Source: an uncultured Methylomirabilota bacterium
GTDB lineage: Bacteria; Methylomirabilota; Methylomirabilia; Methylomirabilales; 2-02-FULL-66-22
DNA length: 64,000 nt
Reading direction: 5' to 3'
Assembly (NCBI GenBank): GCA_963705305.1
Contig: OY970067.1
Coordinates: 3,424,001 to 3,488,000, forward strand
Part shown: piece after piece, positions 31,861 through 61,121 of the stretch
How the letters are laid out: the number at the start of each line of letters is the position of its first letter
Numbering within the stretch: the stretch's first letter is position 1
Program-made: the position numbers and the translations under genes
Notes under the pieces: model-generated
The model's input: only the letters and a program-made list of their open reading frames with translations
What the model was told of the DNA's origin: nothing
The model's database searches: none

Positions 31861-31868
31861 TGTCTTAG

Positions 31869-32118
31869 CAGGCTGCTGAAAAAGGCCCATCTGCTGCGTT
31901 GGCCCGCTCGGGCACTCGTTGCGGCGTACCGGAAGTACGCCTCACTTGGCCCCGGGTACCCATCCCGAGGGATGGGTGAGGCCGCCTTGCCGTTCGGCGG
32001 GCCCTTCGACAAGCTCAGGGCGGTGAGCACAGTCGAACCGCTCACGGTCCCGAGCGAAGTCGAGGGACATCTGGACCTTTTTGAGCAGCCTGGGGGAAAG
32101 CGGGTTTTCAGCACCGTG
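31869..32118 (+). mobile_element. MITE family A copy 1
   Basis: CAGGCTGCTGAAAAA left end, internal TTTTTGAGCAGCCTG, degenerate right end TTTTCAGCACCGTG; TTAG duplicated at 31865 and 32119. Confidence 0.85.
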
Positions 32119-32133
32119 TTAGAGGGAGGCGGC

Positions 32134-33067
32134 GTGCAGCAGTCGCGGATTCGATACATTTGGCGGCTGGCGGGATTGATCCTCTGGCTGTGTTTCGGAG
32201 CGATGCCCGTCCGGGCCGCAACCGTTCCCGACATGCTGGGACGATCGGTGATTGTCCCCGCCGGCCCGCTGCGCGTCGTCTCGCTGGCGCCCAGCCTCAC
32301 GGAGACGGTATTTGCCCTGGGGCGGGGAGACTGGCTGGTGGGGGTGACGGACTACTGCGATTATCCCCCGGCGGCGCGGCGCAAGCCGAAGATCGGAGGG
32401 CTGGCCGCGCCGGATCTGGAGCGCATCCTCCAGGCCCGGCCCGATCTTGTCCTCACCACCGCCGAGGGGAACTCCCGCGAGACGCTCCTCCGGCTGGAGC
32501 GGCTGGGCGTCCCCGTCTTTGCGGTCACCCCCGAGGGGTACACCGGCATTCTCCGCTCGATCGAGCGCCTGGGGGACGTCCTCGACGCCGAGTCGACGGC
32601 CGCCGCCCTGCTGCGGGACATCCGGGGGAAGATCGACGCCGTCCGCCGTCGTGTGGATGGGCGGCCGCGGCCGCGGGCACTGTTTCTGCTGTGGACCGAT
32701 CCCCTGATTGCCGCCGGGCCGGGGACATTCATTCACGATCTTCTGGAGATGGCGGGAGGTTCGGAACGTCCTGCCGGCGGGCGGCGTGCCCTACCCGCAC
32801 CTTGGCTGGGAAGAGGTGGTCGCTCGTGCGCCGGACGTCATCCTGGTAGCGAATCATCGGGAGCGCTTCGGGGCGGCACCGGCCGCTCTAGAGTCCGTCG
32901 ACGCCGGATGGCGGACCTGGCAGAGCATCCCCGCCGTCCGGGCCGGCCGGCTGGTGGCCGTGCCGGCCGACCCGCTTCTCCGGCCCGGCCCGCGGGTGGC
33001 GGAGGGAGTGGAGCGGCTGGCAGCGATTCTCCACCCCGACCTGTTCGAGCCGGAGCGGACGCCATGA
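32134..33067 (+). CDS. btuF: Cobalamin-binding periplasmic protein; extra base near 32760
   Basis: Signal peptide; RVVSLAPSLTE, VGVTDYCDYP, PDLERI; continues in the +1 frame as RNV...YP...EEVVARAPDVI...RPGPRVAEG to TGA 33067, overlapping the btuC ATG. Confidence 0.88.
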
Positions 33068-34104
33068 GCCGCGGCCGGACGGTGGCGCTTCCGCCGAGGC
33101 GGGTCGGCGCCTTCGTGGCCCTCGCGGCCCTCCTGGTGGTCGGGTTGCTGCTGTCCCTGATGGTCGGCAGCGTGCCGGTGCCGCCGAGCCAGACCCTCCG
33201 CATTTTGGCGGGCGGGAGGACCGGACCGGATGATGTCGCCGCCGCGGTCGTCCTCCGCATCCGCCTGCCGCGCGCACTCCTGGCCGGCCTGGTGGGCGCC
33301 TGCCTCTCCCTGGCCGGCCTGGGCTTTCAGGCCATCACGCGGAACCCGCTGGCCGACCCGACGGTCCTGGGCGTCTCCAGCGGGGCAGCCTTCGGGGTGA
33401 CCACGGCGATGCTCCTCGGGATCCTGGGGCCGCTGGGATCCCCGGCGCTCGGCCCGCTGTGCGCCTTTGCGGGGGCGCTGGCGGCAGCCGTCAGCGTCTA
33501 CGCCATTGCCCGCGTGGAGGGCCGGCTCCCCGTGGCCACCCTGCTGCTTTCGGGGGTGATCGTGGGCCTCTTCTTCAGCGCCTGCGTGATGCTGATGACG
33601 GCGCTCCTGGCCTCCTCGGAGCTGCAGGGGGTGGTGTTCTGGCTGATGGGGAACCTGGGGCCGACGGACGGGGCGACGCTGGCCGTCCTGGCAGGGAGTC
33701 TGGCCGTGGGCCTGGCGGTCCTGGCCGGCCAGGCCGGCCGGATGAACCTGCTGGCCCTGGGCGAGGAACAGGCACTGCAACTGGGGGTGGAGGGGGAGCG
33801 GATCAAGCGGCTGGTGTTCGTGGCGGCCTCCCTGGTTACGGGAGCCGCCGTATCCACGGCCGGCTCCATCGGGTTCGTCGGGCTCATCGTTCCGCACGCC
33901 GCCCGCATGCTTCTGGGGCCGGATAACCGCCGGCTCATTCCGGCGACCGTCCTCTTGGGGGCCGCCTTCCTGATCCTGGCGGATCTTTTGGCACGGACCA
34001 TCGCCTCGCCCACGGAGCTGCCGGTGGGAGTAGTGACCGCATTCTGCGGAGCGCCCCTCTTCGTCTATCTGCTGCGGCGAAGGCGGGGAGGGGGATCGCT
34101 GTGA
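33064..34104 (+). CDS. btuC: FecCD/BtuC family ABC permease
   Basis: IRLPR, QAITRNPLADP..LGVSSGA, LGEEQALQLGV, IGFVGLIVPH, ELPVG; riboswitch context. Confidence 0.92.
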   Translation: MSRGRTVALPPRRVGAFVALAALLVVGLLLSLMVGSVPVPPSQTLRILAGGRTGPDDVAAAVVLRIRLPRALLAGLVGACLSLAGLGFQAITRNPLADPTVLGVSSGAAFGVTTAMLLGILGPLGSPALGPLCAFAGALAAAVSVYAIARVEGRLPVATLLLSGVIVGLFFSACVMLMTALLASSELQGVVFWLMGNLGPTDGATLAVLAGSLAVGLAVLAGQAGRMNLLALGEEQALQLGVEGERIKRLVFVAASLVTGAAVSTAGSIGFVGLIVPHAARMLLGPDNRRLIPATVLLGAAFLILADLLARTIASPTELPVGVVTAFCGAPLFVYLLRRRRGGGSL

Positions 34105-34916
34105 TTGCGGTGGAGTGCTGGGAGGTGACCTATCGGTACCGCAGCGGCCGCGGTGTGGCGGGCGTGACGCTCCAGGTGTCGGCGGGCGAGCTGGTGGGCG
34201 TCGTGGGGCCGAACAGCGCGGGCAAGAGCACCCTGCTGCGCCTCCTGAGCAAGGTCCTGGCCCCGCAGCGCGGCCGAATCCTCATCCAGGGCCGGGATAT
34301 TTCATCCCTCAGCCGCCTGGAGGTGGCCCGGCTCGTCGCTGTCGTCCCGCAGGAGCTTCAGGTGGCCTTTCCGTTCACGGCGGCGGAGGTTGTTTTGATG
34401 GGCCGCTTCCCGCACACCGGGGGGCGCCGCAGCGCGACGGACCGGGCGGCGGTCTGGACGGCCATGCAGGCGACCGGGATCACCGACCTGGCGGGCCGGC
34501 GCATGGACGAGCTGTCGGGCGGAGAGCGGCAGCTGGTGTCCGTTGCGCGGGCGCTGGCCCAAGAGCCGGAGGTCTTCCTGCTGGACGAGCCCACAGCCCA
34601 CCTGGATCTCCAGCACCAGCGGCGCGTCCTGGAGATCCTGCTGGAGGAGCGGCGCGTCTCGCGACGCGCCACGATTCTGGTGTCCCACGACCTGGCTCTG
34701 GCGGCCGAGCACTGCGACCGCCTGATTCTCCTGGCGGACGGCTCTATCCTGGCCGCCGGCCTCCCCGAGGAGGTGATCACCACCCGAGCATTGGAATCGG
34801 CATTCGGCTGTCCCGTGGATGTCGAGCGGCATCCCCTCAGCGGGCGCCTGCATGTCCGGGGGCGCCTGTTCTCCCGGGACAGCCTCGTCGATCACGGCAC
34901 CACCCCCCGAATGTAA
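34101..34916 (+). CDS. btuD: Cobalamin/iron-complex ABC ATPase
   Basis: GPNSAGKST, LSGGERQ, LLDEPTAHLD. Confidence 0.9.
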   Translation: MIAVECWEVTYRYRSGRGVAGVTLQVSAGELVGVVGPNSAGKSTLLRLLSKVLAPQRGRILIQGRDISSLSRLEVARLVAVVPQELQVAFPFTAAEVVLMGRFPHTGGRRSATDRAAVWTAMQATGITDLAGRRMDELSGGERQLVSVARALAQEPEVFLLDEPTAHLDLQHQRRVLEILLEERRVSRRATILVSHDLALAAEHCDRLILLADGSILAAGLPEEVITTRALESAFGCPVDVERHPLSGRLHVRGRLFSRDSLVDHGTTPRM

Positions 34917-35090
34917 GGGAAGCTGGTTGGTCCGGGGGAAGGCGCGCAGCCGCCCACCCGGAGAATCCAGCACGGTCCCGCCACTGTGCGTGGGGAGCGA
35001 CCCCGCAGGATGCCACTGTCCCAAGCCGGTCGAGGGATGGGAAGGCGCGGGTGAGCGAGGATCCACAAGTCAGGAGACCTATTCGGGGGG
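34903..35090 (+). promoter_or_regulatory. Cobalamin riboswitch 2 (operon-internal, overlaps the btuD stop)
   Basis: AAGGGAAGCTGGT...GAATCCAGCACGGTCCCGCCACTGT...GCCACTG...GGGAAGGC...AAGTCAGGAGACCT; P1 CCCCCCGAAT/ATTCGGGGGG. Confidence 0.92.
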
Positions 35091-35124
35091 CTGGCCCACG
35101 ACTTCGCGGAGAGGAGAGTGGCGC

Positions 35125-37062
35125 ATGTCTCCAACTAGCGTACGGTTTCTGCCCGCAATCATGGCCGGCATGCTGCTCTGGGCGTCGGCGCTCTGTCCCG
35201 GGCGGGGGGAGGCCCAGACCCCGTCGGATCAGGGGCCGGAACTGCCCCTGGAGGAGGTCGAGGTCACGGCCGCCCGCGTCCCCGAGACCCTCGCCCGGAC
35301 CGCGGCGGACGTGACGGTGATCACCCGGGCCCAGCTGGAGCAGCAGCAGATCACCACCGTGGCGGACGCGCTCCGCATGGTGCCGGCCCTGAATGTGGTC
35401 GAGTCGGGAACTCCCGGATCCGTGACCAGCGTGTTCGCCCGGGGGGGAAATTCCGACCACACGCTGGTCCTGATCGACGGCGTCCGGGTGAACAGTCCGA
35501 CCACCGGCATGTTCGATTTCGCCAACCTGACCACGGCCGGGGTGGAGCGGATCGAGGTGGTCCGCGGGCCGTCCAGCGCCCTGTATGGATCGGAGGGGCT
35601 CACGGCCGTCATCAACATCATCACCAGGAAGGGGGAGGGCACGCCTCAGGGCGGCATCGAGACGGAGGCAGGGTCCTACCAGACATTCCGAGAGCGGGGA
35701 TGGAGCGCCGGCGCGGCGGGTCCGCTGCGGTATTCCGTGGACGTCGCGCGGGATGACAGCAGCGGGAAATTCGCCCACGACGAGTACAACAATACCGCCG
35801 CGGCCGCCCGCCTGGACGCAGAGGTGCTGCCGACCCTCAGCCTGGATCTGTCCGCCCGCTACACCGATGCCTTCAAGAACCTGCCGGGGGTTACGGGCCG
35901 AACGGATTTCTTGACCGGGCAGCCCGATGCCACGCAGAGCAACCGGGAAGGCCTGACGACGGTGAGCCTGGGGGCAACGCACACCCCGACGGACTGGTGG
36001 AGCCATCGCCTTCAACTGTCGTACGTGGAGGACGACGTGGACTTCCGCGATCCGCAGGAAGACCAGGAGCTGGCCCAAGGACTGCTGACCTCGTCGGCAA
36101 CCGGCAAGACACATACGACCCGCCTGGCGGCGGACTGGCAGCATAACCTCCGGCCGGTCTCGTGGGATGCGTTGACCCTGGGCATGCAGGTGGAGCAGGC
36201 GAAAGGGGACCAGACAGATGTGTCCGGGGCCACGGTGCTGAACAAGACGTTCACCAACTACGCCTTCTACGGGCAGAACCAGGTGACGGTGTGGGACCGC
36301 CTGATCCTCACCGCCGGGCTGCGGGAGGACGACTACAGCACCTTCGGCAGCCATCTCAGCCCGAAGTACTCGGTCGCATACCTCCTGCCGGAGACCAACT
36401 CCAAGCTCCGCGCGAGCTACGGGGAGGGGTTTCACGCGCCGACCATCAACGATCTGGCCTACCCGGGCTTCAGCAATCCCAACCTGAAGCCCGAGCAGAA
36501 TCGCAGCCTGGAATTCGGCGTGGATCAGAGCCTGTGGACGGAGCGCATCCTGGCAAGCCTCACCTGGTTCCAGAGCCGCTTCCGAGACCTGATTCAATAT
36601 GATTACGCGACCAGCAAACCCGAAAACATCGCCCATGCCCGGACCCAGGGGGTCGAGGCCGCGCTGACGATCCGCCCCGGCTACGGGCTGAATGTCGTCG
36701 CCGGGTACACCTACCTGGAATCGCTGGATGACAACGGCCAGCCCCTGCTGCGGCGGCCGGAGAACAGCTGGAACTTCACGGTGAATTACGCGCCGCTGAA
36801 GCGGGTGAATCTGTATTCCACCCTTCTGTACGTGGGGAAGCGGGCCGACACGGATCCCGTCACGTACGCGGATGCCGAAAACTACAAGTACGTGACCTGG
36901 GGGGCGGGGGCCTCGGTCACGATCCTCGAGCGGGCGGGTTTCCTCCGGAACCTCCGCGCCCACGGCAAGCTGGACAATATCCTGGGGGTTCATTACCAGG
37001 AAGCCCTGGGATTTCCGGCCCTGGGACGCCGGTATACGCTCGGACTCTCGGGGGAGTTCTAG
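35125..37062 (+). CDS. btuB: TonB-dependent cobalamin receptor
   Basis: Signal peptide, TonB box EEVEVTA, plug HTLVLIDGV, ERIEVVRGPSSALYGS, NPNLKPE, C-terminal F; riboswitch upstream. Confidence 0.92.
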   Translation: MSPTSVRFLPAIMAGMLLWASALCPGRGEAQTPSDQGPELPLEEVEVTAARVPETLARTAADVTVITRAQLEQQQITTVADALRMVPALNVVESGTPGSVTSVFARGGNSDHTLVLIDGVRVNSPTTGMFDFANLTTAGVERIEVVRGPSSALYGSEGLTAVINIITRKGEGTPQGGIETEAGSYQTFRERGWSAGAAGPLRYSVDVARDDSSGKFAHDEYNNTAAAARLDAEVLPTLSLDLSARYTDAFKNLPGVTGRTDFLTGQPDATQSNREGLTTVSLGATHTPTDWWSHRLQLSYVEDDVDFRDPQEDQELAQGLLTSSATGKTHTTRLAADWQHNLRPVSWDALTLGMQVEQAKGDQTDVSGATVLNKTFTNYAFYGQNQVTVWDRLILTAGLREDDYSTFGSHLSPKYSVAYLLPETNSKLRASYGEGFHAPTINDLAYPGFSNPNLKPEQNRSLEFGVDQSLWTERILASLTWFQSRFRDLIQYDYATSKPENIAHARTQGVEAALTIRPGYGLNVVAGYTYLESLDDNGQPLLRRPENSWNFTVNYAPLKRVNLYSTLLYVGKRADTDPVTYADAENYKYVTWGAGASVTILERAGFLRNLRAHGKLDNILGVHYQEALGFPALGRRYTLGLSGEF

Positions 37063-37064
37063 AC

Positions 37065-38287
37065 GTGGCTAGCAGGCTGCTGAAAAAGGCCCATCTGCAG
37101 CGTTGGCGTGCTCCCGCGACGCTGCGGCGTACCCGTCAGTACGCCTCGCGTCTCGGATCGCGCGCCGCCTTGCCGTTCGACGGGCTCACGGTCCCGAGCG
37201 AAGTCGAGGGACATCTGGACCTTTTTGAGCAGCCTGGACAAAGGCGAATTCTTCAGCGTCTTGCTATGCGCCGGCGGAGCGAGGGGGGAGGGCTCGGGTG
37301 GTGGGCCGTCGTGTCGCTGGGCCTCCACGGCGCCCTTCTGACCGGCGTTCTCTCGCTGACTGCTCCGGCGCCCATCACCCACCCGGCGAGCCTGCGGGTG
37401 CGTCTGCTGCAAGAGGCGCCCGAGCCCCCGAGGCTGGCGCCTGCCCCAAAGGCCGCCGTGCCCGCGCCCCTGCCGCCTGTGGCCGGGAAGCCGGTCCTGC
37501 GGAGAGCGCCGGTGCCCGGCCCGACCAGGGCATCGGCAGCGGCCCGCCCGCCGGTTCTGGCTGCTCCACCGAACGACCCGCCCGAGGCGCCCCGGCCGGA
37601 GACCGCTGCATCGTCCAACCAGGGGGAGATGCCGGGCAGTGCGCCGGGGCCGCCGGCTCAAAAACACCTCGTGGGTGCCGAGGCATCGCCCGCGCGGGGG
37701 AGCCCGGGACGCGGGGCGGGCGGTCGCGTTGAATCGCCAGGGGGATCCGGGGAGCCCGCCGCCGGACCCGTCCCGCCCGAGGTGCCTTTGCCGGCTCGCG
37801 CGGAGATCGGTGCGTCAATCGTTCGCCTCGTCCCGCCGGGTAGCGGCGGGATGGGCGGGGTCGGATTCGGGGCGGCCGGCCACGGATCAGGGGACGGCGG
37901 CAGGGGTGGAATGGCCGGGGCGCTCGCGGCGGCGGGTCCCGGAGGCCGGGGGACCGGAAGCGGCGCCGGCGGTCTGCTGGCGTCCGGCGGCGGGGGGGAG
38001 GGCCAGGCGGCGGGGCCAGCCTGTCCGATCTCCTCCGCACGATCCGCCGCCGGATCGAGCAGGCCAAGAGTTACCCACAGGGTGCCCGCGAGCGGGGATT
38101 GGAGGGGACGACGGAGCTGCGCTTCCGCATCGCCCCGGACGGCCGCGTGGCGGCCGTGGAGATCGTGCGCTCTTCCGGCTCGCCGCTCCTGGACGAGACC
38201 GCCAAAGCCACCATCCTGCGGGCGGCTCCCTTCCCCGTGGTGGCGGGCTGGATCCGCATCCCGCTGGCCTTCCGTCTCACGGAATAA
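37065..38287 (+). CDS. tonB: Energy transducer TonB; in-frame MITE at the 5' end and a frameshift probably at the G7 run 37992-37998
   Basis: TM with SLGLH, Pro/Gly-rich linker, TonB_C in the -1 frame (IEQAKSYPQGARERGLEG...RSSGSPLLDE); alternative start ATG 37266. Confidence 0.8.
37073..37263 (+). mobile_element. MITE family A copy 2
   Basis: Same ends as copy 1; flanked by CTAG (37069) and CTAT (37264). Confidence 0.85.
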
Positions 38288-38490
38288 CCGCCCCCTCTCT
38301 GAGGAGACGCGCTTACGCAAGGTGACTCTTGCTTGACCGCTCGCCCCATCTTCGCCGCCGCTCCCAGCCACCTCCATATACCGTTTTCGTATCTCGGTGG
38401 TGATCCCCGCTCGCGCCGGACCGGTCGGCGTATGCCGCGGTCGCGGTCGGAAATGGGGCGATGGGAACCCGGGATGGGCCGGGAAAGCGC

Positions 38491-38526: not shown

Positions 38527-38575
38527 ATTTGTCGCTCGTTCGGGCGGCCGCTCTTGCTCTTGAGGCTGTTTGACG

Positions 38576-45139: not shown

Positions 45140-45185
45140 GGCCGATTCGGTTGTCGGACTCGCCGGCTGGCGGAGCGCGACTCAG

Positions 45186-45399
45186 GAGGCTCTGAAAGAC
45201 CTGGCTTCACTCAGGCTGCTGAAAAAGGCCCAGATGCAAGGCGCCGTCACCCATCCCTCGGGATGGGTACCCGGTGCCCATCCGCAGGATGGGTGCAGGC
45301 GCGAGACGTCCTTTGTGCGTACGGCGCAGCGCCGTGGGAGCGCGGGGGGTACCCGTCCCCAGGACGGGTCCCTGCAGGTGGGTCTTTTTCAGCAGCCTG
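45186..45399 (-). mobile_element. MITE family A copy 3
   Basis: Family A ends; TCAG duplicated at 45182 and 45400, the latter containing the hpnD stop; three ACCCRTCC-type hairpins inside. Confidence 0.82.
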
Positions 45400-46323
45400 T
45401 CAGGCGGGGAGGAGGCGGTGCCGTGCCCAGCAGCCCAGGGCCAGCCAGAGTCGATGGATGTCGGAGAGGCGGATCCGGCGCGAGAGCACCTCGGCGGGGG
45501 CGGCGGCAATCCGGTCCAGGATACGGGAGTAGATGGTCCGCATGACCTCTGCGGCTAGCATGCTGCGGCGATCCTCGACGGGCAGGGCCGCCCGGGCGGC
45601 CGCGTAGAACTGGCGGGCGCGCGCCACCTCGAATCCCATGAGGTCGAGGAATGCCGGGGTCACCCGGCCCTGAAGCAAATCCTTTTGGCCGTAGCCAAAT
45701 CGATCGAGATCCTCCTCCGGAAGGTAGATCCGGCCCCGCTCGGCGTCGCTCTTGAGATCGCGGAGAATGTTGGTGAGCTGAAAGGCCGTGCCCAGGTGCT
45801 CGGCATACGTTCGGGTCTCGGGCCGCGTGTACCCGAAGATCTCGATGCAGATGAGGCCCACGACGCCGGCGACCCGGTAGCAGTACTCCTCTAGCTCGGC
45901 AAACGTGGCGTACCGCCCCTTCACGAGGTCCATCTCCACGCCCCGCAGCAGCTCCTCAAAATAGACACGGGGGATCCCGTACGTCCGGATCACTTCAGCC
46001 AGCCGCCGGGTCACGGGATGGCTGGCCTCACCGCGGAAGCAGGCGTCCAGCTCGGCACGCCAGGCTTTCAGGCGTTCCATGGTGGCGGCGCCATCCGGGC
46101 CGTGGCCGCGCGCGTCGGGGGGGGCGGGCCGATCCATCGCATGGGGAGACGCCTGGAGCTCGTCGACCAGATCATCGGTAACACGGCAGAAGGCGTACAC
46201 CGCAACCAGCGCCTCGCGCTGCGGGCGAGGCAAGAAGAGAAAGGCGTAGGCGAAGTTCGATCGGCTGGCCTTGGTGACGGCCTGGCAGATCTTGCGAGTG
46301 GCAGACGTGCCGGAATCAGGCAT
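45400..46323 (-). CDS. hpnD: Presqualene diphosphate synthase / phytoene-squalene synthase family
   Basis: SNFAYAF, YAFCRVTDD, YCYRVAGVVG, AFQLTNILRD, RGRIYLP. Confidence 0.85.
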   Translation of the reverse strand: MPDSGTSATRKICQAVTKASRSNFAYAFLFLPRPQREALVAVYAFCRVTDDLVDELQASPHAMDRPAPPDARGHGPDGAATMERLKAWRAELDACFRGEASHPVTRRLAEVIRTYGIPRVYFEELLRGVEMDLVKGRYATFAELEEYCYRVAGVVGLICIEIFGYTRPETRTYAEHLGTAFQLTNILRDLKSDAERGRIYLPEEDLDRFGYGQKDLLQGRVTPAFLDLMGFEVARARQFYAAARAALPVEDRRSMLAAEVMRTIYSRILDRIAAAPAEVLSRRIRLSDIHRLWLALGCWARHRLLPA

Positions 46324-47638: not shown

Positions 47639-48580
47639 ATGGACCTGGCCATCGACACGACGAATTTGAGCCGTCAATTCGGCACGGTGCAGGCGGTGTC
47701 GAATCTCTGCCTCCACGTCCGGACGGGGGAGATCTTCGGATTTTTGGGTCCCAACGGCGCGGGCAAGACGACCACCATCCGCATGCTGTGCGGACTCCTC
47801 CTGCCCAGCGCGGGCACAGCCCGGGTGGCGGGATTGGATGTCTCCCTGGACCCTGAGGGGGTGAAGCGCCGCGTCGGGTACATGCCCCAACGGTTCAGCC
47901 TGTACGGGGACCTGACGGTCGGGGAGAATCTGGATTTCTTCGCCGGGGCGTACCGGCTCTCGGGACGCCGGCGGCGGCAGATGGTGGCGGAGACGTTGGA
48001 GCGGGTGGGGCTGGCCGAACGGCGTCGGGAGCTGACGGATCACCTCTCGGGCGGGTTGAAGCAGCGCCTGGCGCTAGGCTGCGCCCTGGTGCACGCCCCG
48101 ATCCTCCTGTTCCTGGATGAGCCCACGGCCGGCGCCGACCCCGCCTCGCGCCAGCGGATTTGGGACCTGCTGTACGAGGTGGGGGCGGAGGGCCGCACCA
48201 TCCTGGTTACGACCCATTATGTGGAGGAGGCGGAGCGCTGCCAGACCATCGGGTTCATGCATCGGGGGCGCCTGATCGCCTCCGGGTCGCCCGAGCGCTG
48301 CAAGGCGGAGCTGCGCGACGTCATCCTGGAGGTGGACGCCGCCCCCATCATGCCGGCCGCGGCGGCGGCGCGGGCGCTGGCCGGGGTGGCCGGGGTCACG
48401 GTCTACGGACGCACGCTCAGGGTGTTCAGCCGGGCCTCCGCCGATCTGGCCCAGCCGCTGCAAACGGCGCTGGCGGCCCGCGGGGTCGCGGTGCGCGGCC
48501 TGCGGACCGTGGCGCCCACGCTGGAGGATGTGTTCATGTCGCTCACCCGGGGGCTCCCGGAGGAGACGGAGGACTCATAG
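47639..48580 (+). CDS. ABC-2 type exporter ATP-binding protein
   Basis: GPNGAGKTT, LSGG, LFLDEPT, TTHY; alternative start 47627. Confidence 0.93.
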   Translation: MDLAIDTTNLSRQFGTVQAVSNLCLHVRTGEIFGFLGPNGAGKTTTIRMLCGLLLPSAGTARVAGLDVSLDPEGVKRRVGYMPQRFSLYGDLTVGENLDFFAGAYRLSGRRRRQMVAETLERVGLAERRRELTDHLSGGLKQRLALGCALVHAPILLFLDEPTAGADPASRQRIWDLLYEVGAEGRTILVTTHYVEEAERCQTIGFMHRGRLIASGSPERCKAELRDVILEVDAAPIMPAAAAARALAGVAGVTVYGRTLRVFSRASADLAQPLQTALAARGVAVRGLRTVAPTLEDVFMSLTRGLPEETEDS

Positions 48581-48582
48581 CG

Positions 48583-49728
48583 GTGCTGTCGGTTATCATC
48601 CACATGTCACTCAAGGAGCTCCGCCAGATCCTGCGGGATCGGCGGACCCTCATTCTGATTCTGGTGATGCCCATCCTGCTGACCTTCCTTTTCGGCAAGG
48701 CGCTGGAGACCGGCGAACTGCGCCAGATCCCCTCGGTGATCCTGAACCTGGACGGATCCCCGGAGAGCAACGTCATCGCCACCGCGTTCAGCACCTATGA
48801 CGAGGTCGACATTCGGCGGGAGGTGCACTCGCTGAAGGAGGCGCAGGATCTCATGGCGCAGGGGAAGATCAAGGCGGCCATCATCATCCCGAAGGGGTTC
48901 ATGCGGGATATCGAGGCCGGCCGGGAGGCCCAGCTCCAACTCTTGTTGGACGGGACCGATAACAGCTCGGCCCCCATCGTGGAGGGGGTGGCGCAGCGGG
49001 TGATCCAGCGCTACAACGCGCAGCAGGCGATCAAGGGGCTGTGGGAGCGAGGGGTGCGCCCGGACCGCGGCCTGCGGCTCATCCAGCCCGTCTATGTGCA
49101 GACCGAGATCCGCTACAACCCCGGCCTCCAGTATCTGGGCTATGTCATGCCCGGGGTCATCGGGCTGACCTTGCAGCTGATCACCGTGATGCTGATGGCC
49201 ATCACCATCCCGCGCGAGCGCGAGCGGGGGACGCTGGACCAGCTCATGGCGACGCCCATCACCCGGACCGAGCTGATCCTCGGCAAGCTGCTCCCCTACT
49301 TCGGCATCTCGCTCCTCAACGTGGCCACCATCCTGTACGTCGCGGACCGCTGGTTCAACATCGCGGTGGGAGGACAGCTGTCGCTGCTGCTGAGCCTCTG
49401 CGCGCTGTTCGTCCTCTCCTCCCTGGCCACCGGCCTGCTCATCTCGGCGGTGTCGCGCTCCCAGTTTCAGGCGGTGCAGATCGCGGTGTTCTATGTGCTC
49501 CCCGTGTTCCTTCTCTCCGGGGCTTATGCCCCCATCGAGGCCATCCCGGAGTACATCCGACCCATCTCCTACCTGTTCCCTCTGATGTATTTCTCGCGAG
49601 CGGTCCGCGCCGTGACCCTGCGCGGGGCGGACATCCTGCTGGTCTGGAAGGACCTGACCATCCTGGGAGGATTCGCGGTCGTCTTCCTCTACTGGGCCAT
49701 TCTGGCCTTTCACAAGCGGGTGGCGTAG
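48583..49728 (+). CDS. ABC-2 type permease (YbhR/YbhS-like)
   Basis: KELRQILRDRR, RYNP, RERERGTLDQL..TP, GKLLPY. Confidence 0.92.
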   Translation: MLSVIIHMSLKELRQILRDRRTLILILVMPILLTFLFGKALETGELRQIPSVILNLDGSPESNVIATAFSTYDEVDIRREVHSLKEAQDLMAQGKIKAAIIIPKGFMRDIEAGREAQLQLLLDGTDNSSAPIVEGVAQRVIQRYNAQQAIKGLWERGVRPDRGLRLIQPVYVQTEIRYNPGLQYLGYVMPGVIGLTLQLITVMLMAITIPRERERGTLDQLMATPITRTELILGKLLPYFGISLLNVATILYVADRWFNIAVGGQLSLLLSLCALFVLSSLATGLLISAVSRSQFQAVQIAVFYVLPVFLLSGAYAPIEAIPEYIRPISYLFPLMYFSRAVRAVTLRGADILLVWKDLTILGGFAVVFLYWAILAFHKRVA

Positions 49729-49881
49729 CAGGCTGTTCAAAAAGGCCCATCTGCTGCGTTGGTCCGCTCGGGCACTTGCTGCGGCGTACTGGAAGTACGC
49801 CTCACTCGGCCCTTTGCGGACCGCCTTGCATCTGGGCCTTTTTGAACAGCCTGAGCGAAGGGGCAGACTTTCCGCATCCTG
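49729..49881 (+). mobile_element. MITE family A copy 4 (minimal form without passenger modules)
   Basis: CAGGCTGTTCAAAAAGGCCCA...TGGGCCTTTTTGAACAGCCTG perfect 21-bp inverted repeat, then degenerate TTTCCGCATCCTG; starts right after the permease TAG. Confidence 0.85.
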
Positions 49882-52723: not shown

Positions 52724-52843
52724 CAGCGTGTGTCCATTAGTCACTTGCCTATTGGCAGGTTGCTGAAAAACCCCTTTAGCCGCCTGAGGGTAGCAGAGCA
52801 ACACGGGAACGGCAAGGCGGGGGCACGGGTGCAACGTTGCGGG

Positions 52844-54087: not shown

Positions 54088-54107
54088 GGACCAATGGGTC
54101 CAGCTCG

Positions 54108-54827: not shown

Positions 54828-54874
54828 GCGCGCCGCTCTCGGTCTCCACGGGTTCCAGATGAGGCGGGACGGCC

Positions 54875-55309: not shown

Positions 55310-55312
55310 CCC

Positions 55313-56176: not shown

Positions 56177-57501
56177 TGCGTGGACGGACGTGGATCGCCC
56201 TCGGGGCGATTGGATTGATGGGATGGGCCGCCGCCCTTCCGGCCCGGGCACAGGTGATCCAGCGCGAGCTGCGCGAGCGGGTCGTGCCCAAGGTCACCTT
56301 GGCCATCGCGGGGTTCGGCCCCTTCGTCGAGCAGGGACAGGACCTCGGAAAGCTGGGTGCCTCCATCCTGGCCGGCGACCTGACGTTCACCACCGTATTC
56401 GACGTGATGGATTCGGCCACACTGCCCTTCGATCCGCGGACCGTCCAGCCGGATCAGGAAAAGGTGCTGTTTCCGGGGCTCAGCTCCCTCAGGGTGCAGC
56501 AGCTGGCCGAGGGCCAGGTGTCCAGCCGGGGGCCCGAGGTCGTGGTGGAGGGACGCCTCTTCGATGTGGGCACGGGGAACATGATTTTCGGCAAGCGGTA
56601 CGTCGGGGATCCGAAGTTCTTCCGGCTCATCATTCACCGCTTCGCGGACGACATCCTGTTTCATGTGACCGGAGAGCGGGGGGTGGCCCAGACGCAGATC
56701 GCCTACGTGTCGGCTATCAGTCGCACCGAAAAAGAGCTTTACGTCATGGATTACGACGGGGCCAACCCCGTCCCCATCACCGGGAATCACTCGATCAACC
56801 TGTCGCCCCGCTGGTCGCCGGACGGCCACCTGCTAGCATACACGTCGTACCAGCTGGACCCCAAGACCCGGCGGGACAACCCGAATCTCCTGGTGCTCAA
56901 TTGGGACAGCGGCCGCCGGAGCGTCCTGTCCGCCCGGCCCGGCCTCAACATCACGCCCGCCTGGTCCCCCGACGGCCGGTGGATCGTCCTGGCCATGAGC
57001 GCGGGGGGCGGGACCAATCTCTTCCTCATGCCCAAGGGCGGGGGCAAGGCGACGCCGCTGACCGCCGGGACCGCCGTCTCGGTGTCCCCCTCCTTTTCCC
57101 CCAACGGCCGGCAGATCGTCTTCAACTCGGACCGCGGGGGGACGCCCCAGATCTACGTGGTGGATGTGGACGGCTCCAATCTGCGCCGGATCACCTTCCA
57201 GGGGAGCTACAACTCCTCTCCGCGCTGGTCGCCGCGGGGTGACAAGATCGCCTTCATGTGCCGCCTGGCGGGAAACCAGATCTGCCTGATCGACCCCGAC
57301 GGATCGGAGCTCGCGCAGCTCACCACCCTGGGGAGCAACGAGGATCCGGACTGGTCCCCCGACGGCCGGCACCTCGTCTTCAGCTCGACACGGATGGGCC
57401 ACCGGGATATTTTCGTCATGCACGCCGATGGAACGGAGCAAACCCGCCTGACGAACAACGGCAGGGACAACTACCTCCCCGACTGGGGTCCGGCCCCCTA
57501 G
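56173..57501 (+). CDS. tolB: Tol-Pal beta-propeller protein
   Basis: HRFADDI...TGERG, repeated P.WSPDG (PD40) units. Confidence 0.95.
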   Translation: MMRGRTWIALGAIGLMGWAAALPARAQVIQRELRERVVPKVTLAIAGFGPFVEQGQDLGKLGASILAGDLTFTTVFDVMDSATLPFDPRTVQPDQEKVLFPGLSSLRVQQLAEGQVSSRGPEVVVEGRLFDVGTGNMIFGKRYVGDPKFFRLIIHRFADDILFHVTGERGVAQTQIAYVSAISRTEKELYVMDYDGANPVPITGNHSINLSPRWSPDGHLLAYTSYQLDPKTRRDNPNLLVLNWDSGRRSVLSARPGLNITPAWSPDGRWIVLAMSAGGGTNLFLMPKGGGKATPLTAGTAVSVSPSFSPNGRQIVFNSDRGGTPQIYVVDVDGSNLRRITFQGSYNSSPRWSPRGDKIAFMCRLAGNQICLIDPDGSELAQLTTLGSNEDPDWSPDGRHLVFSSTRMGHRDIFVMHADGTEQTRLTNNGRDNYLPDWGPAP

Positions 57502-57533
57502 CGGCTTTCCCGACCGAAGGAGGTGGACTGGTC

Positions 57534-58172
57534 GTGCCACACGGACGATGGGTGAATGGGCTGCGGCTGATCGGACTCTGCCTCCTGGTCGGCGTGGCCC
57601 TCCTGGGGTGTGCCAAGCAACCCGAGCTGGGGACGGCCGGGCCCGCTGGCATGGGACCGTCAGCCGTGACGGCGCCTGCCGGCCCGGGCAGCCCCGCGAC
57701 CGGGGCGCCGGGATCGAGCGGGGGCGAGATCGCGGTGACCCGGCCCACGCTGCCCACGGAAACACCCATAGAATCCCGGCCCTCCCTCTCCTCTCCGGCT
57801 GCGGGGACGGTCTCGGGAGCGGGCGCCCAGGCCGCCTCGGCCCTCCAGGATGTGTTCTTCGACTACGACAGCTCTGCCATCCGCGGGGACCAGCAGAGCG
57901 TGCTGGCCGCCGACGTAGCCTGGCTGCAGGCCAACCCCGGGGTGCGCCTGAGCCTAGAGGGGCACTGCGACGAGCGCGGCACGCCGGAGTTCAACCTCGC
58001 CCTGGGAGATCGTCGCGCCAAGGCGGTGAGGGCGTACCTGGTGGCCGCCGGCGTCGGGGCGGATCGGATCACGACCATCAGCTACGGAGAGGAACGTCCA
58101 TTTGTGCCGGGCCACGACGAGAGCGCCTGGCGGTGGAACCGCCGGGTCCACTTCGTGGTCGCCGTGCCCTGA
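57534..58172 (+). CDS. pal: Peptidoglycan-associated lipoprotein
   Basis: AAGGAGG RBS; LLGC lipobox; FFDYD, EGHCDERG..EFNLALG.RRA, SYGEERP, NRRV. Confidence 0.95.
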   Translation: MPHGRWVNGLRLIGLCLLVGVALLGCAKQPELGTAGPAGMGPSAVTAPAGPGSPATGAPGSSGGEIAVTRPTLPTETPIESRPSLSSPAAGTVSGAGAQAASALQDVFFDYDSSAIRGDQQSVLAADVAWLQANPGVRLSLEGHCDERGTPEFNLALGDRRAKAVRAYLVAAGVGADRITTISYGEERPFVPGHDESAWRWNRRVHFVVAVP

Positions 58173-58264
58173 CGGCAGCAGTGAACAACTGACCCACAGG
58201 CCGCCTGCGCCGCCTGCTTGGGCGGCGCCCAGGCGCGACGAGGGAGAGAACCTTGGACGCAATC

Positions 58265-59383
58265 ATGATCAAACGGACACGCAGCGCATGGCGAACGGGG
58301 GCTCTGCTCCTGGGTGCGATCAGCCTCCTCGGCGGCTGCGCAACCCCCGAGGACATTACCACCCTCCGCCAAGACATGCTCCGCCTCCGCCAGGACATGG
58401 CCGGCCTGGCCAAGGCCGACGAGGGGGCCCGCGCCTTCACGGACGAGCGGCTGAGCAAGCTGGAGACGGAGTTCCGCAACCAGTTCGAATCCTCGGTGAA
58501 GGAGAGCGAGGGATCGCGCGTCGCGCTGAACCAGCGGCTGGACGAGCTGTCCACGGAAACCAGCTTCGTCCAGGGAAAGCTGGAGGAGAACGCCTCCACG
58601 CTGCGTGACCTGAACACCCGGCTGGACGACATGAGCCAGCAGGTCCGCCAGACCGGGCAGCGCCTGGACAGCATGGATCAGCAGGTGCGGACCCTCGACC
58701 AGGAGGTCAAGGCCTGGCGGCAGCCGCCGCTGGTGGCTCCGGCGCCGGGACAGGTCTTCGGTCAGATGCCGACCACCGCGCCCGGACAGGCCACGCCGCC
58801 GCCCTCCGGCTCGCCGGCGCTCCCCACAGTGCAATCGCCCGCCGCGGCTCTCCCGCTCCATCAGGCGGGCGTCCCGCAGCCCCCGGCGGTGCAGCCGCCG
58901 CCGGCGACGTTTCCGTCCTCGCAGTCGCCGATGGCATCGCTGCCCTCGGCCACCCTTCCGTCGGCGCCGCCGACACCGGCAGCTCCGGCGCCCGCCCCCC
59001 CGGCCGTCCTGCCGCCCGAGGATCTGTACAAGAGCGCTCTGAGCGATTACACCCGAGGGGATTACGACCTGGCCATCGCCGGCTTCCGCAGCTACATCCA
59101 GAACTACCCCAAGACCAGCCTGGTTCCGAACGCCGAGTACTGGCTGGGCGAGTCCTACTATGGCCAGAAGAGCTACACCCAGGCCATCGAGGCATTCGGC
59201 GGCGTCATTCGTGACTATCCCGACAGCCCCAAGGTCCCCAGCGCGATGTTCAAGCAGGGGGATGCGTATCTTCAGCTGGGGGATGCCCAGAAAGGGACGA
59301 GTGCGCTCTGCGAGTTGATCGCCAAGTTTCCGAGGACCCGGGAGGCCCGGCTGGCGCGGGAGCGCAACCTGAAGTGCCGGTGA
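58265..59383 (+). CDS. cpoB: Tol-Pal associated CpoB/YbgF (lipoprotein; coiled coil, Pro-rich linker, TPR)
   Basis: LGGC lipobox; F..YI..YP....PNAEYWLGESYY, YPDSPKVPSAMFK. Confidence 0.9.
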   Translation: MIKRTRSAWRTGALLLGAISLLGGCATPEDITTLRQDMLRLRQDMAGLAKADEGARAFTDERLSKLETEFRNQFESSVKESEGSRVALNQRLDELSTETSFVQGKLEENASTLRDLNTRLDDMSQQVRQTGQRLDSMDQQVRTLDQEVKAWRQPPLVAPAPGQVFGQMPTTAPGQATPPPSGSPALPTVQSPAAALPLHQAGVPQPPAVQPPPATFPSSQSPMASLPSATLPSAPPTPAAPAPAPPAVLPPEDLYKSALSDYTRGDYDLAIAGFRSYIQNYPKTSLVPNAEYWLGESYYGQKSYTQAIEAFGGVIRDYPDSPKVPSAMFKQGDAYLQLGDAQKGTSALCELIAKFPRTREARLARERNLKCR

Positions 59384-59408
59384 GTTGATTCGGGCGGGGA
59401 AACAGCAA

Positions 59409-59450
59409 CGGCGGCGCCTTCCTCAGGGGAGGGCGCCGCCGGATTTTTTT
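59409..59450 (+). terminator. Intrinsic terminator of the tol-pal operon
   Basis: CGGCGGCGCCTTCC/GGAGGGCGCCGCCG stem followed by T7. Confidence 0.88.
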
Positions 59451-59475
59451 GGAGGCTGGGCGGGGGACCGCTTAG

Positions 59476-59747
59476 CAGGATGCTGAAAAACCTGTCTTCG
59501 CCCAGGCTGCTCAAAAAGGTCCAGATGTCCCTCGACTTCGCTCGGGACCGTGAGCGGTTCGACTGTGCTCACCGCCCTGAGCTTGTCGAAGGGCCCGCCG
59601 AACGGCAAGGCGGCCTCACCCATCCCTCGGGATGGGTACCCGGGGCCGAGTGAGGCGTACTTCCGGTACGCCGCAGCGAGCGCCCGAGCGCGCGGGGCAC
59701 CCATCCGAAGGATGGGTCTCGGCAGATGGGCCTTTTTCAGCAGCCTG
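59476..59747 (-). mobile_element. MITE family A copy 5
   Basis: Nearly identical to copy 1 in reverse, with one additional hairpin; TTAG duplicated at 59472 and 59748, the latter containing the dnaA stop. Confidence 0.88.
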
Positions 59748-61121
59748 TTAGGGGGTCAGCCGCACGCTCAACTCTTCGATCTGCTTGCGAAATACCTCTT
59801 CGCCGGCGATCATCCGCTTGACCTTCTCGCAGGCATGGATGACCGTCGAGTGATCCTTGCCGCCAAAGCCGTCCCCGATGTCCGGCAGGGACGCCTTGAC
59901 GATCTCCCGGCACAGGTACATGGCGATCTGGCGGGGCAGAACGATGGACTTGTTCCTCCCGCGGGAGCGGAGGTCGTCCACCCGCACTCCGAAGAACTCC
60001 GCCACGGCCTTCTGGATAGCCGAGATCGTCGGCAGGCGCTGCTGTTCCGCGGTCAGCTCTTTCAGGACCTCCTGGGCCAGCTCCAGGCTCACCTCCCGGT
60101 TGGTGAAGGAGGCATGGGCCACCAGGCGCACCAGCGAGCCCTCCAGCTCGCGGATGTTGGACTTCACGTGCTTGGCGATGAAGAGCGAGACCTCGTCCGG
60201 CAGGCGTACCCCTTGGGCCTGGGCCTTCTTCCGCAGGATGGCCGCCTTCGTCTCCAGGTCCGGCGGCTGGATGTCGGCGATCAGCCCCCACTCGAACCGC
60301 GACCGCAGCCGCTCCTCCAGCGTCGGGATCTCGCGAGGCAGGCTGTCGGAGCTGATGACGATCTGCTTGGAAGAATCGTACAGATCGTTGAAGGTGTGGA
60401 AGAACTCCTCCTGCGTCCGCTCTTTCCCCGCGATGAACTGGATATCGTCGATCAGGAGGAGGTCCAGGCTCCGGTAGCGGTTGCGGAACTCGACGGTGGC
60501 ATCGAAGCGGATGGCGTTGATGAGGTCGTTGGTGAACTTCTCGGAAGAGACATACGAGACCTTGATCCGCGAGTCCCGCGTTCGGGCCAGGTTGCCGATG
60601 GCGTGCAGCAGGTGGGTCTTGCCCAGCCCCACCCCGCCGTAGATGAAGAGCGGGTTGTACGTCTTGGACAGCTGCTCCGCCACGGCCATGGAGGCGGCGT
60701 GGGCGAACTGGTTGCTGGTGCCCACGACAAAGGAGTCGAAGGTGTACTTCGGATTGAGCTGGGACACCCCTTCGCGCTGGCGCCGCGATGTGCGGCGGTC
60801 GGCGGTCTCCTCCCGGGGAAGGGAGATCACCGGTGTCTCCCGGTCCCGGTCCGGCAGGACCAGGGTCAATTCGACCTTGGTGAACATGAGATCTTCCAGG
60901 GCGGACCGCAACAGACCCAGATAGTGCTCCTCGAACCATTCCTTAAAGAAGCGGTTGGGGAGCAGCACCCGAAATCGGTGATCCTCGATGGCCCCCAAGG
61001 TCAAGGGACGGAACCAGGCTTCGAAGCTCTGCCGACTGATGCGGCTGCGGATGACCGCCAGTGCTTCCTCCCAGAGATCCCGCCCATTCCGCGCCGACAC
61101 CGAAGCGTCCGTGCCCGGCAT
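59748..61121 (-). CDS. dnaA: Chromosomal replication initiator
   Basis: LNPKYTFDSFVVG, YNPLFIYGGVGLGKTHLL, LLIDDIQF, RLRSRFEWGL, KDHSTV.HA; GGAGG RBS. Confidence 0.98.
   Translation of the reverse strand: MPGTDASVSARNGRDLWEEALAVIRSRISRQSFEAWFRPLTLGAIEDHRFRVLLPNRFFKEWFEEHYLGLLRSALEDLMFTKVELTLVLPDRDRETPVISLPREETADRRTSRRQREGVSQLNPKYTFDSFVVGTSNQFAHAASMAVAEQLSKTYNPLFIYGGVGLGKTHLLHAIGNLARTRDSRIKVSYVSSEKFTNDLINAIRFDATVEFRNRYRSLDLLLIDDIQFIAGKERTQEEFFHTFNDLYDSSKQIVISSDSLPREIPTLEERLRSRFEWGLIADIQPPDLETKAAILRKKAQAQGVRLPDEVSLFIAKHVKSNIRELEGSLVRLVAHASFTNREVSLELAQEVLKELTAEQQRLPTISAIQKAVAEFFGVRVDDLRSRGRNKSIVLPRQIAMYLCREIVKASLPDIGDGFGGKDHSTVIHACEKVKRMIAGEEVFRKQIEELSVRLTP

Follow-up and report, generated by a model that had tools for sequence, protein, structure and literature searches.

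Tn7 carries unequal numbers of transposase sites at its ends and inserts just past the glmS stop codon in one orientation, with a dedicated protein reading this one specific gene end. The IS1380 family makes 4-5 bp duplications. YTAR is the duplication motif of IS5, as given in PMC10359306. Correia elements (NEMIS) of Neisseria are foldback MITEs with long inverted ends that adjoin genes, and their transcribed hairpins have been proposed to be RNase III substrates that modulate neighboring mRNAs (PMC2229807).

We analyzed a family of repeats, MITE-A, from a 64-kb window (the whole stretch of DNA presented here) and from the genome that contains it. MITE-A may resemble Tn7 in its unequal ends and in insertion past a gene stop with a preferred orientation; unlike Tn7, it adjoins dozens of genes that are unrelated to one another, and its 4-bp target is generic. 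The IS1380-family element of the same genome, present in 25 copies, ends in CCCTAATCTCCGGCTAAG, which is unrelated to the MITE-A end CAGGCTGCTGAAAAA, and a related genome (G005) has no match to PF13701 yet holds about 170 MITE-A copies. With IS5-group MITEs, MITE-A shares small size, absence of coding sequence, terminal inverted repeats and duplication of a 4-bp YTAR target. It differs from them in a right end with an extra spacer and a third terminal 15-mer, in its polar placement at stop codons, and in that no IS5-type transposase with MITE-A ends was present in any genome examined. Correia elements are similar in being foldback MITEs with long inverted ends beside genes, but they have TA at their ends and are A+T-rich, whereas MITE-A is G+C-rich with a 4-bp YTAR duplication and a third end; stop-codon docking and gene-relative polarity are not mentioned in the available part of PMC2229807. 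A full-text literature search, not exhaustive and with subscription journals outside it, returned no account of MITE-A, nor of any bacterial MITE that docks on stop codons in a polar manner. MITE-A is ordinary in kind and puzzling in its polarity. Its new features are a third end that makes it asymmetric, a biased orientation, and conservation that is far better in the ends than in the tails.

Anatomy and distribution of MITE-A

When searched with up to two mismatches, the 15-mer CAGGCTGYTSAAAAA matched 13 times in the window, against 0.18 matches expected from shuffles. Twelve of the matches belong to five MITE-A copies and a remnant (Table 1), which is most likely a truncated copy. The remaining match, at 19604, falls within a coding sequence and is apparently due to chance. 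A sequence-only reading of the window had listed five copies and a solo end, and both the 15-mer search and reading of the sequence found all of them in place, with the flanking 4-mers it had given, those of copy 4 being degenerate. The same reading had noted stop codons in the flanks of three copies, all in the same relative orientation, and we found that copies 3, 4 and 5 indeed each have their tail-less end toward the gene. It had also reported no transposase in the window; matches to PF01609, PF13701, PF05598 and PF13358 in this genome all lie outside it.

Table 1. MITE-A copies in the window and features beside copy 1. Copy extents include both flanking 4-mers.
Feature	Position	Strand	Parts	Context
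MITE-A copy 1	31865..32122	+	TTAG 31865-31868; L-TIR from 31869; core to 32092 (224 nt); tail 32093-32118; TTAG 32119-32122	3' of riboswitch terminator, 5' of btuF/FecCD-like ORF; not a gene end
MITE-A copy 2	37069..37267	+	CTAG 37069-37072; core 37073-37236 (164 nt); worn tail 37237-37263; CTAT 37264-37267	7 nt beyond TAG stop (37060-37062) of TonB-dependent receptor gene
MITE-A copy 3	45182..45403	-	TCAG 45182-45185; tail 45186-45211; core 45212-45399 (188 nt); TCAG 45400-45403; CTGA/CTGA in element orientation	Right-hand TCAG includes TGA stop of SQS_PSY (squalene/phytoene-synthase, hpnD-like) gene 45400-46323, - strand
MITE-A copy 4	49725..~49885	+	GTAG 49725-49728; core 49729-49853 (125 nt, basic form); degenerate tail/right flank, right boundary approximate	GTAG 49725-49728 includes TAG stop of ABC-2 permease gene 48160-49728
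MITE-A copy 5	59472..59751	-	TTAG 59472-59475; tail 59476-59502; core 59503-59747 (245 nt); TTAG 59748-59751; CTAA/CTAA in element orientation	Right-hand TTAG includes TAA stop of dnaA (59748-61415, - strand)
Remnant	52756..52830	-	Tail-like third end 52756-52784, then internal fragments (CGGCAAGGCGG motif); no inner end	
Cobalamin riboswitch aptamer	31527..31752	+		Context of copy 1
Riboswitch terminator hairpin	~31826-31862			Ends 6 nt before copy 1

The genome holds 112 paired copies, dispersed along the whole chromosome. Each has two 26-bp inverted ends, and 94 of the 112 carry an extra 27-nt tail, closed by a third occurrence of the terminal 15-mer. The layout is asymmetric, with a single 26-bp inverted repeat on one side and the same repeat, a 12-nt spacer and the third 15-mer on the other. 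These 94 copies show genome-wide the three-end arrangement seen earlier in the window, in which an outer end is followed by its near-perfect inverted counterpart inside and, about 27 nt farther on, by a degenerate third end. Core sizes range from 79 to 301 nt, from which alone we judged the elements to lack coding capacity. Lengths are quantised and, as had been proposed, vary through internal modules, with a module size of about 20 nt.

The closest pair of cores was 96% alike. Nearest neighbors by core (mean core identity 0.886) had a tail identity of 0.72, compared with 0.70 for random pairs. This absence of coupling speaks against co-inheritance of tail and core, but the left and right halves of the core were equally uncoupled, so the result says nothing specific to the tail and the whole element is a mosaic. 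We also rejected the idea that hairpin modules are independent mobile units, because 48 of the 56 strict ACCCATCC..GGATGGGT hairpins lay within paired copies; four of the other eight were in unpaired copies and three had a different common flank. Similarly, pre-existing solo tails were rejected as the insertion target, since just 11 of 62 tail-like matches lacked an adjoining inner end at the threshold used, and these were mostly worn, shifted or truncated copies.

MITE-A was found in 19 of the 20 same-genus genomes searched and in one genome of another family. The latter has about 600 copies, and related genomes span 0 to about 600, in agreement with the earlier description of a high-copy, non-autonomous element. 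A distant-mode search of a plasmid collection gave no MITE-A match, viral contigs gave 0 matches, and joints that skip the element were absent from the one DNA run (low-depth contigs).

A transposase sharing the MITE-A ends was sought with eight Pfam families and with scans of end pairs, and none was found in the genomes examined. No match to PF01609, PF13586, PF13701, PF13359, PF05598, PF13546, PF13358 or PF00665 was bounded by MITE-A ends in this genome and/or in four or five high-copy genomes, and none of the eight families was common to all high-copy genomes. No inverted end pair 500-4000 bp apart in this genome enclosed a transposase, nor did any end pair among 80 public loci examined. 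The sole public locus with an end but without a mate within 2.5 kb (L191) was discarded as a candidate, as it runs on into ordinary genes. The single IS5-group relic of this genome is without MITE-A ends, and the IS427-like element found here and in G022 has unrelated ends. We conclude that MITE-A is a genuine family of small non-coding mobile elements, and we think it likely that this is a non-autonomous DNA transposon family, and an old one, in Methylomirabilota (Rokubacteria-type) genomes.

Target duplication and placement at gene ends

The flanking 4-mers were identical in 30 of the 94 tail-bearing copies, compared with 12.65 in shuffles (0 of 20000 shuffles reached 30), and flanks covaried at positions 1 and 4 of the 4-mer (p = 0.025 and 0.0007). 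The left flank was YTAR in 69 of 112 copies, CTGA/CTGA was seen as a perfect pair in a few, and the extended target consensus was the symmetric Y-YTAR-R. With these results, we conclude that the 4-bp flanks arose by genuine duplication of a Y-YTAR-R target, which upholds the YTAR-type duplication first suggested from the window. The duplication was imperfect in 64 of the 94 copies, and this, together with closest cores that are only 96% alike, indicates that movement has not been recent in this genome.

We compared filled and empty sites among relatives that are only 70-89% identical, so that exact empty alleles cannot be reconstructed. The dnaA site was filled in one of 21 genomes; all 20 relatives were empty there, each with a single stop 4-mer and no element, as a duplication at insertion had led the sequence-only reading to expect. 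The hpnD-like and permease sites were also filled in G013 and G014 and were empty in the remaining relatives examined, and the copy 1 site was shorter by about the length of the element in at least nine relatives.

All stop and orientation counts rest on our own crude GC3-based gene predictions in place of annotation. By these predictions, the tail-less end was flush with a gene stop in 60 of the 112 copies, and six further genes terminate at a TGA inside the tail-less end, whereas the tail was flush with a stop in 12 copies. One G013 ortholog also ends at a TGA inside the element end. Counting either side, 68 of 112 copies were stop-flush, compared with about 18% expected from the available YTAR sites (p = 1e-23). 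The earlier claim that copies concentrate at gene ends was thus borne out. Its explanation, that target preference steers the element there, held in part: the target is YTAR and gene ends are in excess, but the excess is larger than target preference alone would give.

The orientation of gene-end copies was strongly biased, with 66 having the tail-less end toward the gene and 12 the tail (p = 3.5e-10, about 5:1). Because the target is palindromic or symmetric, this bias cannot stem from it; at CTAG-only (palindromic) sites, the counts were 24 tail-less and 5 tail. Between convergent genes, 20 copies had only the tail-less end at a stop, one had only the tail, three had both and seven had neither. 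Non-flush copies between co-directional genes showed no orientation bias (12 vs 13). Stop docking was 14/32 vs 4/30 in G022 and 15/30 vs 4/30 in G005, and we conclude that the orientation bias recurs in these two other genomes. Co-orientation with the leading strand inferred from GC skew held for about 65% of copies on a rough reading of bins, and we rejected a replication-strand rule for orientation on account of this low agreement.

Movement, polarity and the conserved ends

From the anatomy, we infer a DDE-type reaction with a 4-bp staggered cut at Y-YTAR-R, occasionally CTGA, by an enzyme that would be supplied in trans and is probably missing from most present-day genomes. The middle of the target is TAG or TAA, and because the duplication regenerates it, insertion exactly at a stop codon leaves the protein intact. 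Such insertions would survive and most others would be purged. A symmetric target and harmlessness at stops leave the polarity unexplained. Its cause, which we infer along with that of the near-invariant 26-bp ends beside decaying tails and duplications, may be selection on the gene 3' end, our favored explanation, for example through a 26-bp RNA duplex meeting the terminating ribosome or a double-strand RNase; alternatively, the insertion step itself could be polar. The ends may be held by recognition by a protein or by continuing homogenisation among copies.

A further reading, compatible with transposon origin and in our view rather unlikely, is that the host keeps the copies as 3'-end hairpins (a terminator, an mRNA stabiliser or a double-strand RNase processing site), so that placement and polarity reflect function beyond tolerance. 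In support, the core forms a single long hairpin (-91 kcal/mol, z -7.05; 0 of 200 shuffles equally stable), whose stem has an A5 run on one arm and a T5 run on the other. As to a terminator, a stem and a T5 run are present, but the T5 run is paired with the A5 run, and a simple consensus terminator scan called none of copies 3-5, the copies that it covered. In addition, copy 1 lies between the cobalamin riboswitch and the ORF under its control, and 42 of the 66 copies at gene ends have a co-directional gene next, in some cases within 4-60 nt, compared with a baseline of 72%, so copies do not avoid probable operons. For these last two reasons, the terminator role that had been suggested from sequence is mildly disfavored. 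A promoter scan of copies 3-5 was also empty, and with no sigma-70-like -10 box visible by eye we rejected the idea that the tail carries an outward promoter. In support of a kept module, both arms had changed to the same letter 10 times, against about 1.3 expected, yet such paired changes are far exceeded by 161 one-sided ones. Conservation of the 26-bp ends was at least 0.9 at most positions across the 112 copies, compared with 0.4-0.89 in the tail, and although it is inflated because the ends served to find the copies, it includes nine positions that were not used for this. Matching duplications in G022 were found in only 3 of 22 copies with perfect 26-mers, which, like the restriction of polarity to flush copies, favors a kept module, whereas the range of 0 to about 600 copies among related genomes argues against an indispensable copy set.

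Polarity could instead be fixed at insertion, which we also consider unlikely. The two-site end would make an asymmetric complex that senses a polar feature of gene ends, such as the shift in composition from coding to spacer sequence, a polymerase that has paused, or a terminator close by. The asymmetry of the ends in 94 of 112 copies suits this proposal, as does the strong bias between convergent genes, a setting without a downstream promoter to be affected. G+C over 15 nt was higher on the gene side of flush copies (0.717 vs 0.666, p = 0.015), but in non-flush copies both this asymmetry and the orientation bias relative to transcription were absent, the target consensus is symmetric, and we know of no polar DNA feature common to stop codons. 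Two further identities for MITE-A seem to us highly improbable: a REP-like element whose movement depends on a tyrosine (Y1/RAYT, IS200-type) transposase, and an element of the IS630/Tc1 type, with duplication of TA only. In their favor, the left flank is GTAG in 12 of 112 copies, which we take to resemble the REP tetranucleotide, and IS630-type genes have 12 matches in this genome. Three genomes with 125 to 210 MITE-A copies each (G005, G013 and G014), however, gave no IS630-type genes, and orientation tracks the adjacent gene more than replication direction, as would not be expected of REP elements. Covariation of both outer letters of the 4-mer contradicts both proposals, because Y1 makes no duplication and TA-only duplication would put the outer letters inside the element. 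We conclude that the Y1/REP and IS630/Tc1 readings are largely refuted by the duplication statistics.

Possible consequences for gene ends

Annotation can be misled by elements with YTAR targets at stop codons, since these elements are crossed by long false ORFs. Two features of MITE-A stand out. A symmetric target predicts no strong gene-relative polarity, yet polarity was seen in three genomes, and the ends are conserved far beyond neighboring element sequence with no transposase found. The 26-bp ends are near-invariant over hundreds of old insertions and across genera, whereas tails and duplications decay, and docking is 5:1. On this basis MITE-A might go beyond a parasite that the host tolerates and be, from the outset or by later change, a polar gene-end module recognized by a sequence-specific factor that sets the mRNA 3'-end fate of about 1% of genes, a proposal that we consider doubtful. 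The candidate factor might be a transposase that the host has domesticated, or an activity that processes RNA duplexes and is coupled to the terminating ribosome. By analogy, the Correia hairpins suggest a way in which a 26-bp RNA duplex could have an effect at a stop codon. If selection causes the polarity, each genome would offer about 60 natural experiments on the effect of a perfect RNA duplex at the stop codon on expression. If the insertion step causes it, MITE-A would be a DDE element with a novel means of sensing the direction of genes.

Anatomy of the MITE-A elements

The 15-mer CAGGCTGYTSAAAAA, with up to two mismatches allowed, matched 13 times in the window against 0.18 matches expected. 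Reading the sequence bore out the five MITE-A elements and the one remnant that the sequence-only reading had placed there (see table), and its three-end layout was confirmed in all five. An outer end, CAGGCTGCTGAAAAAGGCCCATCTGC, is followed by a near-perfect inverted copy, and about 27 nt past this inner end lies a third, worn terminal 15-mer, after which a 4-mer repeats the one before the first end. Contact with a stop codon had been claimed for three copies, and Pfam scans of the flanking ORFs confirmed it, with the tail-less end facing the gene each time. Copy 1 sits just past a riboswitch terminator, whose hairpin is conserved in relatives, and is therefore upstream of a btuF/FecCD-like ORF; it separates this ORF from the riboswitch that presumably controls it. 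The dnaA gene next to copy 5 is at about 3.48 Mb; by cumulative GC skew, which is lowest near 1.3-1.8 Mb and peaks near 4.1 Mb, this is a long way from the inferred origin and about 0.6 Mb away from the inferred terminus.

MITE-A copies in the window and the features next to them
Feature	Position in window	Surroundings	Support
Cobalamin riboswitch	31527-31752	its terminator hairpin directly precedes copy 1	Rfam match
Copy 1	31869	directly after terminator hairpin of cobalamin riboswitch	
Second cobalamin riboswitch	34892-35100	precedes the TonB-dependent receptor gene with copy 2 at its end	
Copy 2	37073	7 nt beyond stop of TonB-dependent receptor gene	
Copy 3	45186	against TGA of squalene/phytoene-synthase (hpnD-like) gene	Pfam scan
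Copy 4	49729	against TAG of ABC-2 permease gene	Pfam scan
Remnant	52756		
Copy 5	59476	against TAA of dnaA (59748-61415)	Pfam scan

The window's genome (G000) is one contig of 5.65 Mb with 66% G+C. A 17-nt end motif (up to two mismatches) matched 264 times in it, giving 112 inverted pairs and leaving 40 matches unpaired, most of which are outer tails of near-perfect sequence or copies that are worn or truncated. The cores comprise a central hairpin, optional 20-nt hairpin modules and a larger CTTCGACAAGCTCAGGG... module, and fall into length classes of 125-126, 145-147, 164-167, 183-186, 204-206, 224-226, about 240 and about 262 nt. Variable nested cargo had been proposed; the length variation through internal modules stood, but 48 of 56 strict small hairpins lay within paired copies, so the modules are parts of MITE-A and not separate cargo.

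The tail (consensus GGCGAAAACGGGTTTTTCAGCAGCCTG) was recognisable in 94 of the 112 copies, and in the other 18 it was either worn, as in window copies 2 and 4, or missing. Orientation read from small differences between the two 26-mers matched the tail side in every clear case (45 and 30). Some tail-less copies have a YTAR-like 4-mer directly after the inner end, and solo tails are rare and have the appearance of truncations. Four copies (G000 2114027, 2254632, 3815411 and 5618481) have exact direct repeats of 8-13 nt at the gene-end, tail-less side and at the tail terminus, where the repeat takes the place of the tail's consensus letters. Two further copies (4075773-4075919 and 4090521-4090667) are inverted, 14.6 kb apart and identical in both flanks; they border a large inverted duplication and have an IS1380 fragment between them.

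Target sites, stop codons and polarity

Flanking 4-mers were identical in 30 of the 94 tail-bearing copies, compared with 12.65 (sd 2.8) under random re-pairing, and 0 of 20000 shuffles reached 30. When CTAG left flanks were removed, 10 of 62 were identical versus 3.4. Letters 1 and 4 also covaried between the two sides (Fisher p = 0.025 and 0.0007). This identity and covariation fit the 4-bp duplication first read from the window. Duplication of TA only, or a mechanism without duplication, is not compatible with them. The 4-mer is immediately preceded by Y in 73% of cases and followed by R in 78%, and the target is therefore a symmetric Y-YTAR-R. Perfect CTGA/CTGA pairs were few, namely window copy 3 and one in G022, a genome from another family of the order.

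Genes were called as ORFs of 80 codons or more in which the last 120 codons had GC3 above 0.72, GC3-GC2 above 0.2 and GC1-GC2 above 0.08, a crude home-made procedure that yielded 5374 candidates covering 80% of the genome. The tail-less end was flush with a predicted stop, that is, directly against it, in 60 of the 112 copies, and in six more the gene enters the element by 11 nt and stops at a TGA inside that end. The tail side was flush with a stop in 12 copies, four of them flush on both sides. Outside the elements there were 7246 YTAR sites, of which 879 coincided with predicted stops, another 4014 fell in uncovered DNA and the remaining 2353 were within ORFs. The suggestion that target preference steers the element to gene ends holds for the YTAR target and for the enrichment at stops, but stops make up 18% of the presumably harmless YTAR sites, against 68 of 112 copies observed (binomial p = 1e-23, with crude gene calls), so target preference explains the effect only in part.

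The tail-less end faced the gene in 66 cases and the tail in 12 (p = 3.5e-10, on the same crude calls), and this polarity was also seen at palindromic CTAG sites (24 versus 5). Between convergent genes, 20 copies touched a stop with the tail-less end only, one with the tail only, three with both and seven with neither. A scan of all offsets found no pile-up of near-misses on the tail side, and non-flush copies showed no orientation bias relative to co-directional neighbours (12 co-oriented, 13 anti-oriented). G+C in flush copies was slightly higher on the gene side (0.717 versus 0.666, p = 0.015), and this difference was absent in non-flush copies. The polarity recurs in other genomes: in samples of loci, coding ORFs ended at 14 of 32 tail-less ends versus 4 of 30 tails in G022, and at 15 of 30 versus 4 of 30 in G005, a same-genus relative.

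Site occupancy, age and mosaicism

Of 20 other same-genus genomes searched, 19 carry the end motif, in copy numbers from roughly 1 to 210. Among 20 same-order genomes of other families, one had about 600 copies and one a single match, and a reversed-pattern control gave no match in any genome searched. Exact 26-mers in a public genome collection fell, among the matches listed, mostly in records with Methylomirabilota, Rokubacteria or Methylomirabilia in the title; a single set of records titled Sulfotelmatobacter contributed many of the matches listed, and isolated contigs bore other labels, which may be the result of mis-binning.

At the dnaA site only the window's genome has a MITE-A copy; in each of the 20 relatives the gene ends there in a single stop, mostly TGA or TAG, with a shared terminator behind it. 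Copies at the permease and hpnD-like sites occur in the window's genome and in the same-genus relatives G013 and G014, and the two sites are empty in the 16 and 15 further relatives whose ends were readable, where the stops are mostly TGA. Judged by flanking-gene identity, other relatives are closer to the window's genome than G013 and G014; the shared filled sites reflect either recurrent insertion at favoured sites or old insertions lost elsewhere. The copy-1 site is 227-260 nt shorter in at least nine relatives. Flanking genes are only 70-89% identical between relatives, and exact pre-insertion sequences are therefore not readable. In G013 the hpnD-like ortholog (locus L278) has lost the duplicated 4-mer and stops at a TGA inside the element's end, a natural case of MITE-A supplying a stop. 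In relatives that lack MITE-A at the permease or hpnD-like gene end (loci L119-L137 and L266-L285), the 3' spacers of these genes contain other palindromes, made of short tandem GACAGGG/GACAGCG or ATTTCGG units. The same spacers in another relative, G008, hold a repeat with a CCCTTCGACAAGCTCAGGG motif that is also found as a MITE-A module.

Insertions in the window's genome are old, because even the two most similar cores agree at 96% and 64 of the 94 duplications are no longer perfect. The 26-bp ends are nevertheless conserved at 0.9 or above at nearly every position; copies were ascertained through their ends, and the conservation extends to positions 18-26, which were not used in finding them. 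Tail positions are conserved at 0.4-0.89. Matching duplications were present in 3 of 22 G022 copies picked for near-perfect 26-mers (at most two mismatches), and the 26-mers were exact in all G022 loci extracted. A left core's nearest neighbour predicted neither the right core (0.66 versus 0.61 at random) nor the tail (0.70 versus 0.70), so the elements are mosaics. The orthologous permease copies of G013 and G014 have a rare core variant in common and quite different tail spacers. The two arms changed to the same letter 10 times versus about 1.3 expected, with 161 one-sided changes. Taking the conservation, duplication-decay and mosaic results together, we conclude that constraint acts on the ends, exerted by transposase recognition in long-lived lineages, by a host factor or by both, that copies recombine with one another, and that the tail is largely free to vary except for its T-run and CAGCA.CCTG motif.

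Transposase partner, class and possible function

A transposase bounded by MITE-A ends was sought genome-wide and in high-copy relatives and was not found. In the window's genome no inverted end pair 500-4000 bp apart enclosed one. Family searches covered that genome and four or five high-copy genomes, and none of the transposase loci extracted had MITE-A ends around the gene. PF01609 had 32 matches in the window's genome, mostly a 25-copy IS1380-type element with ends CCCTAATCTCCGGCTAAG, and none in G005. PF13586, searched in the window's genome only, gave one IS427-like element with ends unrelated to MITE-A. PF05598 gave one relic, in the window's genome only; PF13546 matched in G013 only, and PF13358 in the window's genome and G022 only. 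There was no match to PF13701 in G005, to PF00665 in G014, or to PF13359 in any of five genomes. In 80 public loci the mate end lay 120-220 nt away in 77 of 82 cases; of the remaining five, four meet a contig end or have a mate that has diverged, and the fifth is truncated.

IS1380-type elements share the YTAR 4-bp duplication property. The IS1380-family element (1521 bp, a 493-aa frame, about 25 near-identical copies in G000, for example 747476-748996) is the most active insertion sequence of this genome and is unrelated to MITE-A. The IS427-like element, with ends GCTTATCCGTAAATA, has two ORFs that are apparently joined by a frameshift (G022 locus L006, 1049-1960; G000 about 1668630-1669530); in G022 it has TTAG on either side of it and is inserted within a MITE-A copy. 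IS630 prefers CTAG, and an IS630-type gene (G000 2959351-2959937) lies at most about 150 nt upstream of the CTAG preceding a MITE-A end. Only the 4-bp YTAR duplication points to the enzyme class; YTAR is named as the IS5 duplication motif in PMC10359306.

We conclude from structure, duplication, copy number and filled and empty sites that MITE-A is a MITE, one without the usual partner. Described bacterial MITEs differ from it in that MITE-A has a three-ended asymmetry, docks on stop codons with polarity and combines near-invariant ends with decaying tails. The literature searched contained no description of the family or of such stop-codon polarity.

As RNA, the 125-nt core is predicted to form one hairpin (-91 kcal/mol, z -7.05) whose ascending arm carries an A5 run and whose descending arm carries a U5 run, a modelled shape that would suit a two-way terminator. 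A consensus terminator scan covering copies 3-5 called none, and gene-end copies were followed by a co-directional gene in 42 of 66 cases (baseline 72%), ten within 60 nt and two of these overlapping. Given these results and the placement of copy 1, strong termination seems unlikely. The terminating ribosome would melt part of a perfect 26-bp RNA duplex that starts at the first base after the stop; in the tail-first orientation the duplex would lie 31 nt further away and escape this melting. If such duplexes are cut by a double-strand RNase, as PMC2229807 proposes for Correia elements, this difference between orientations could give selection a handle.
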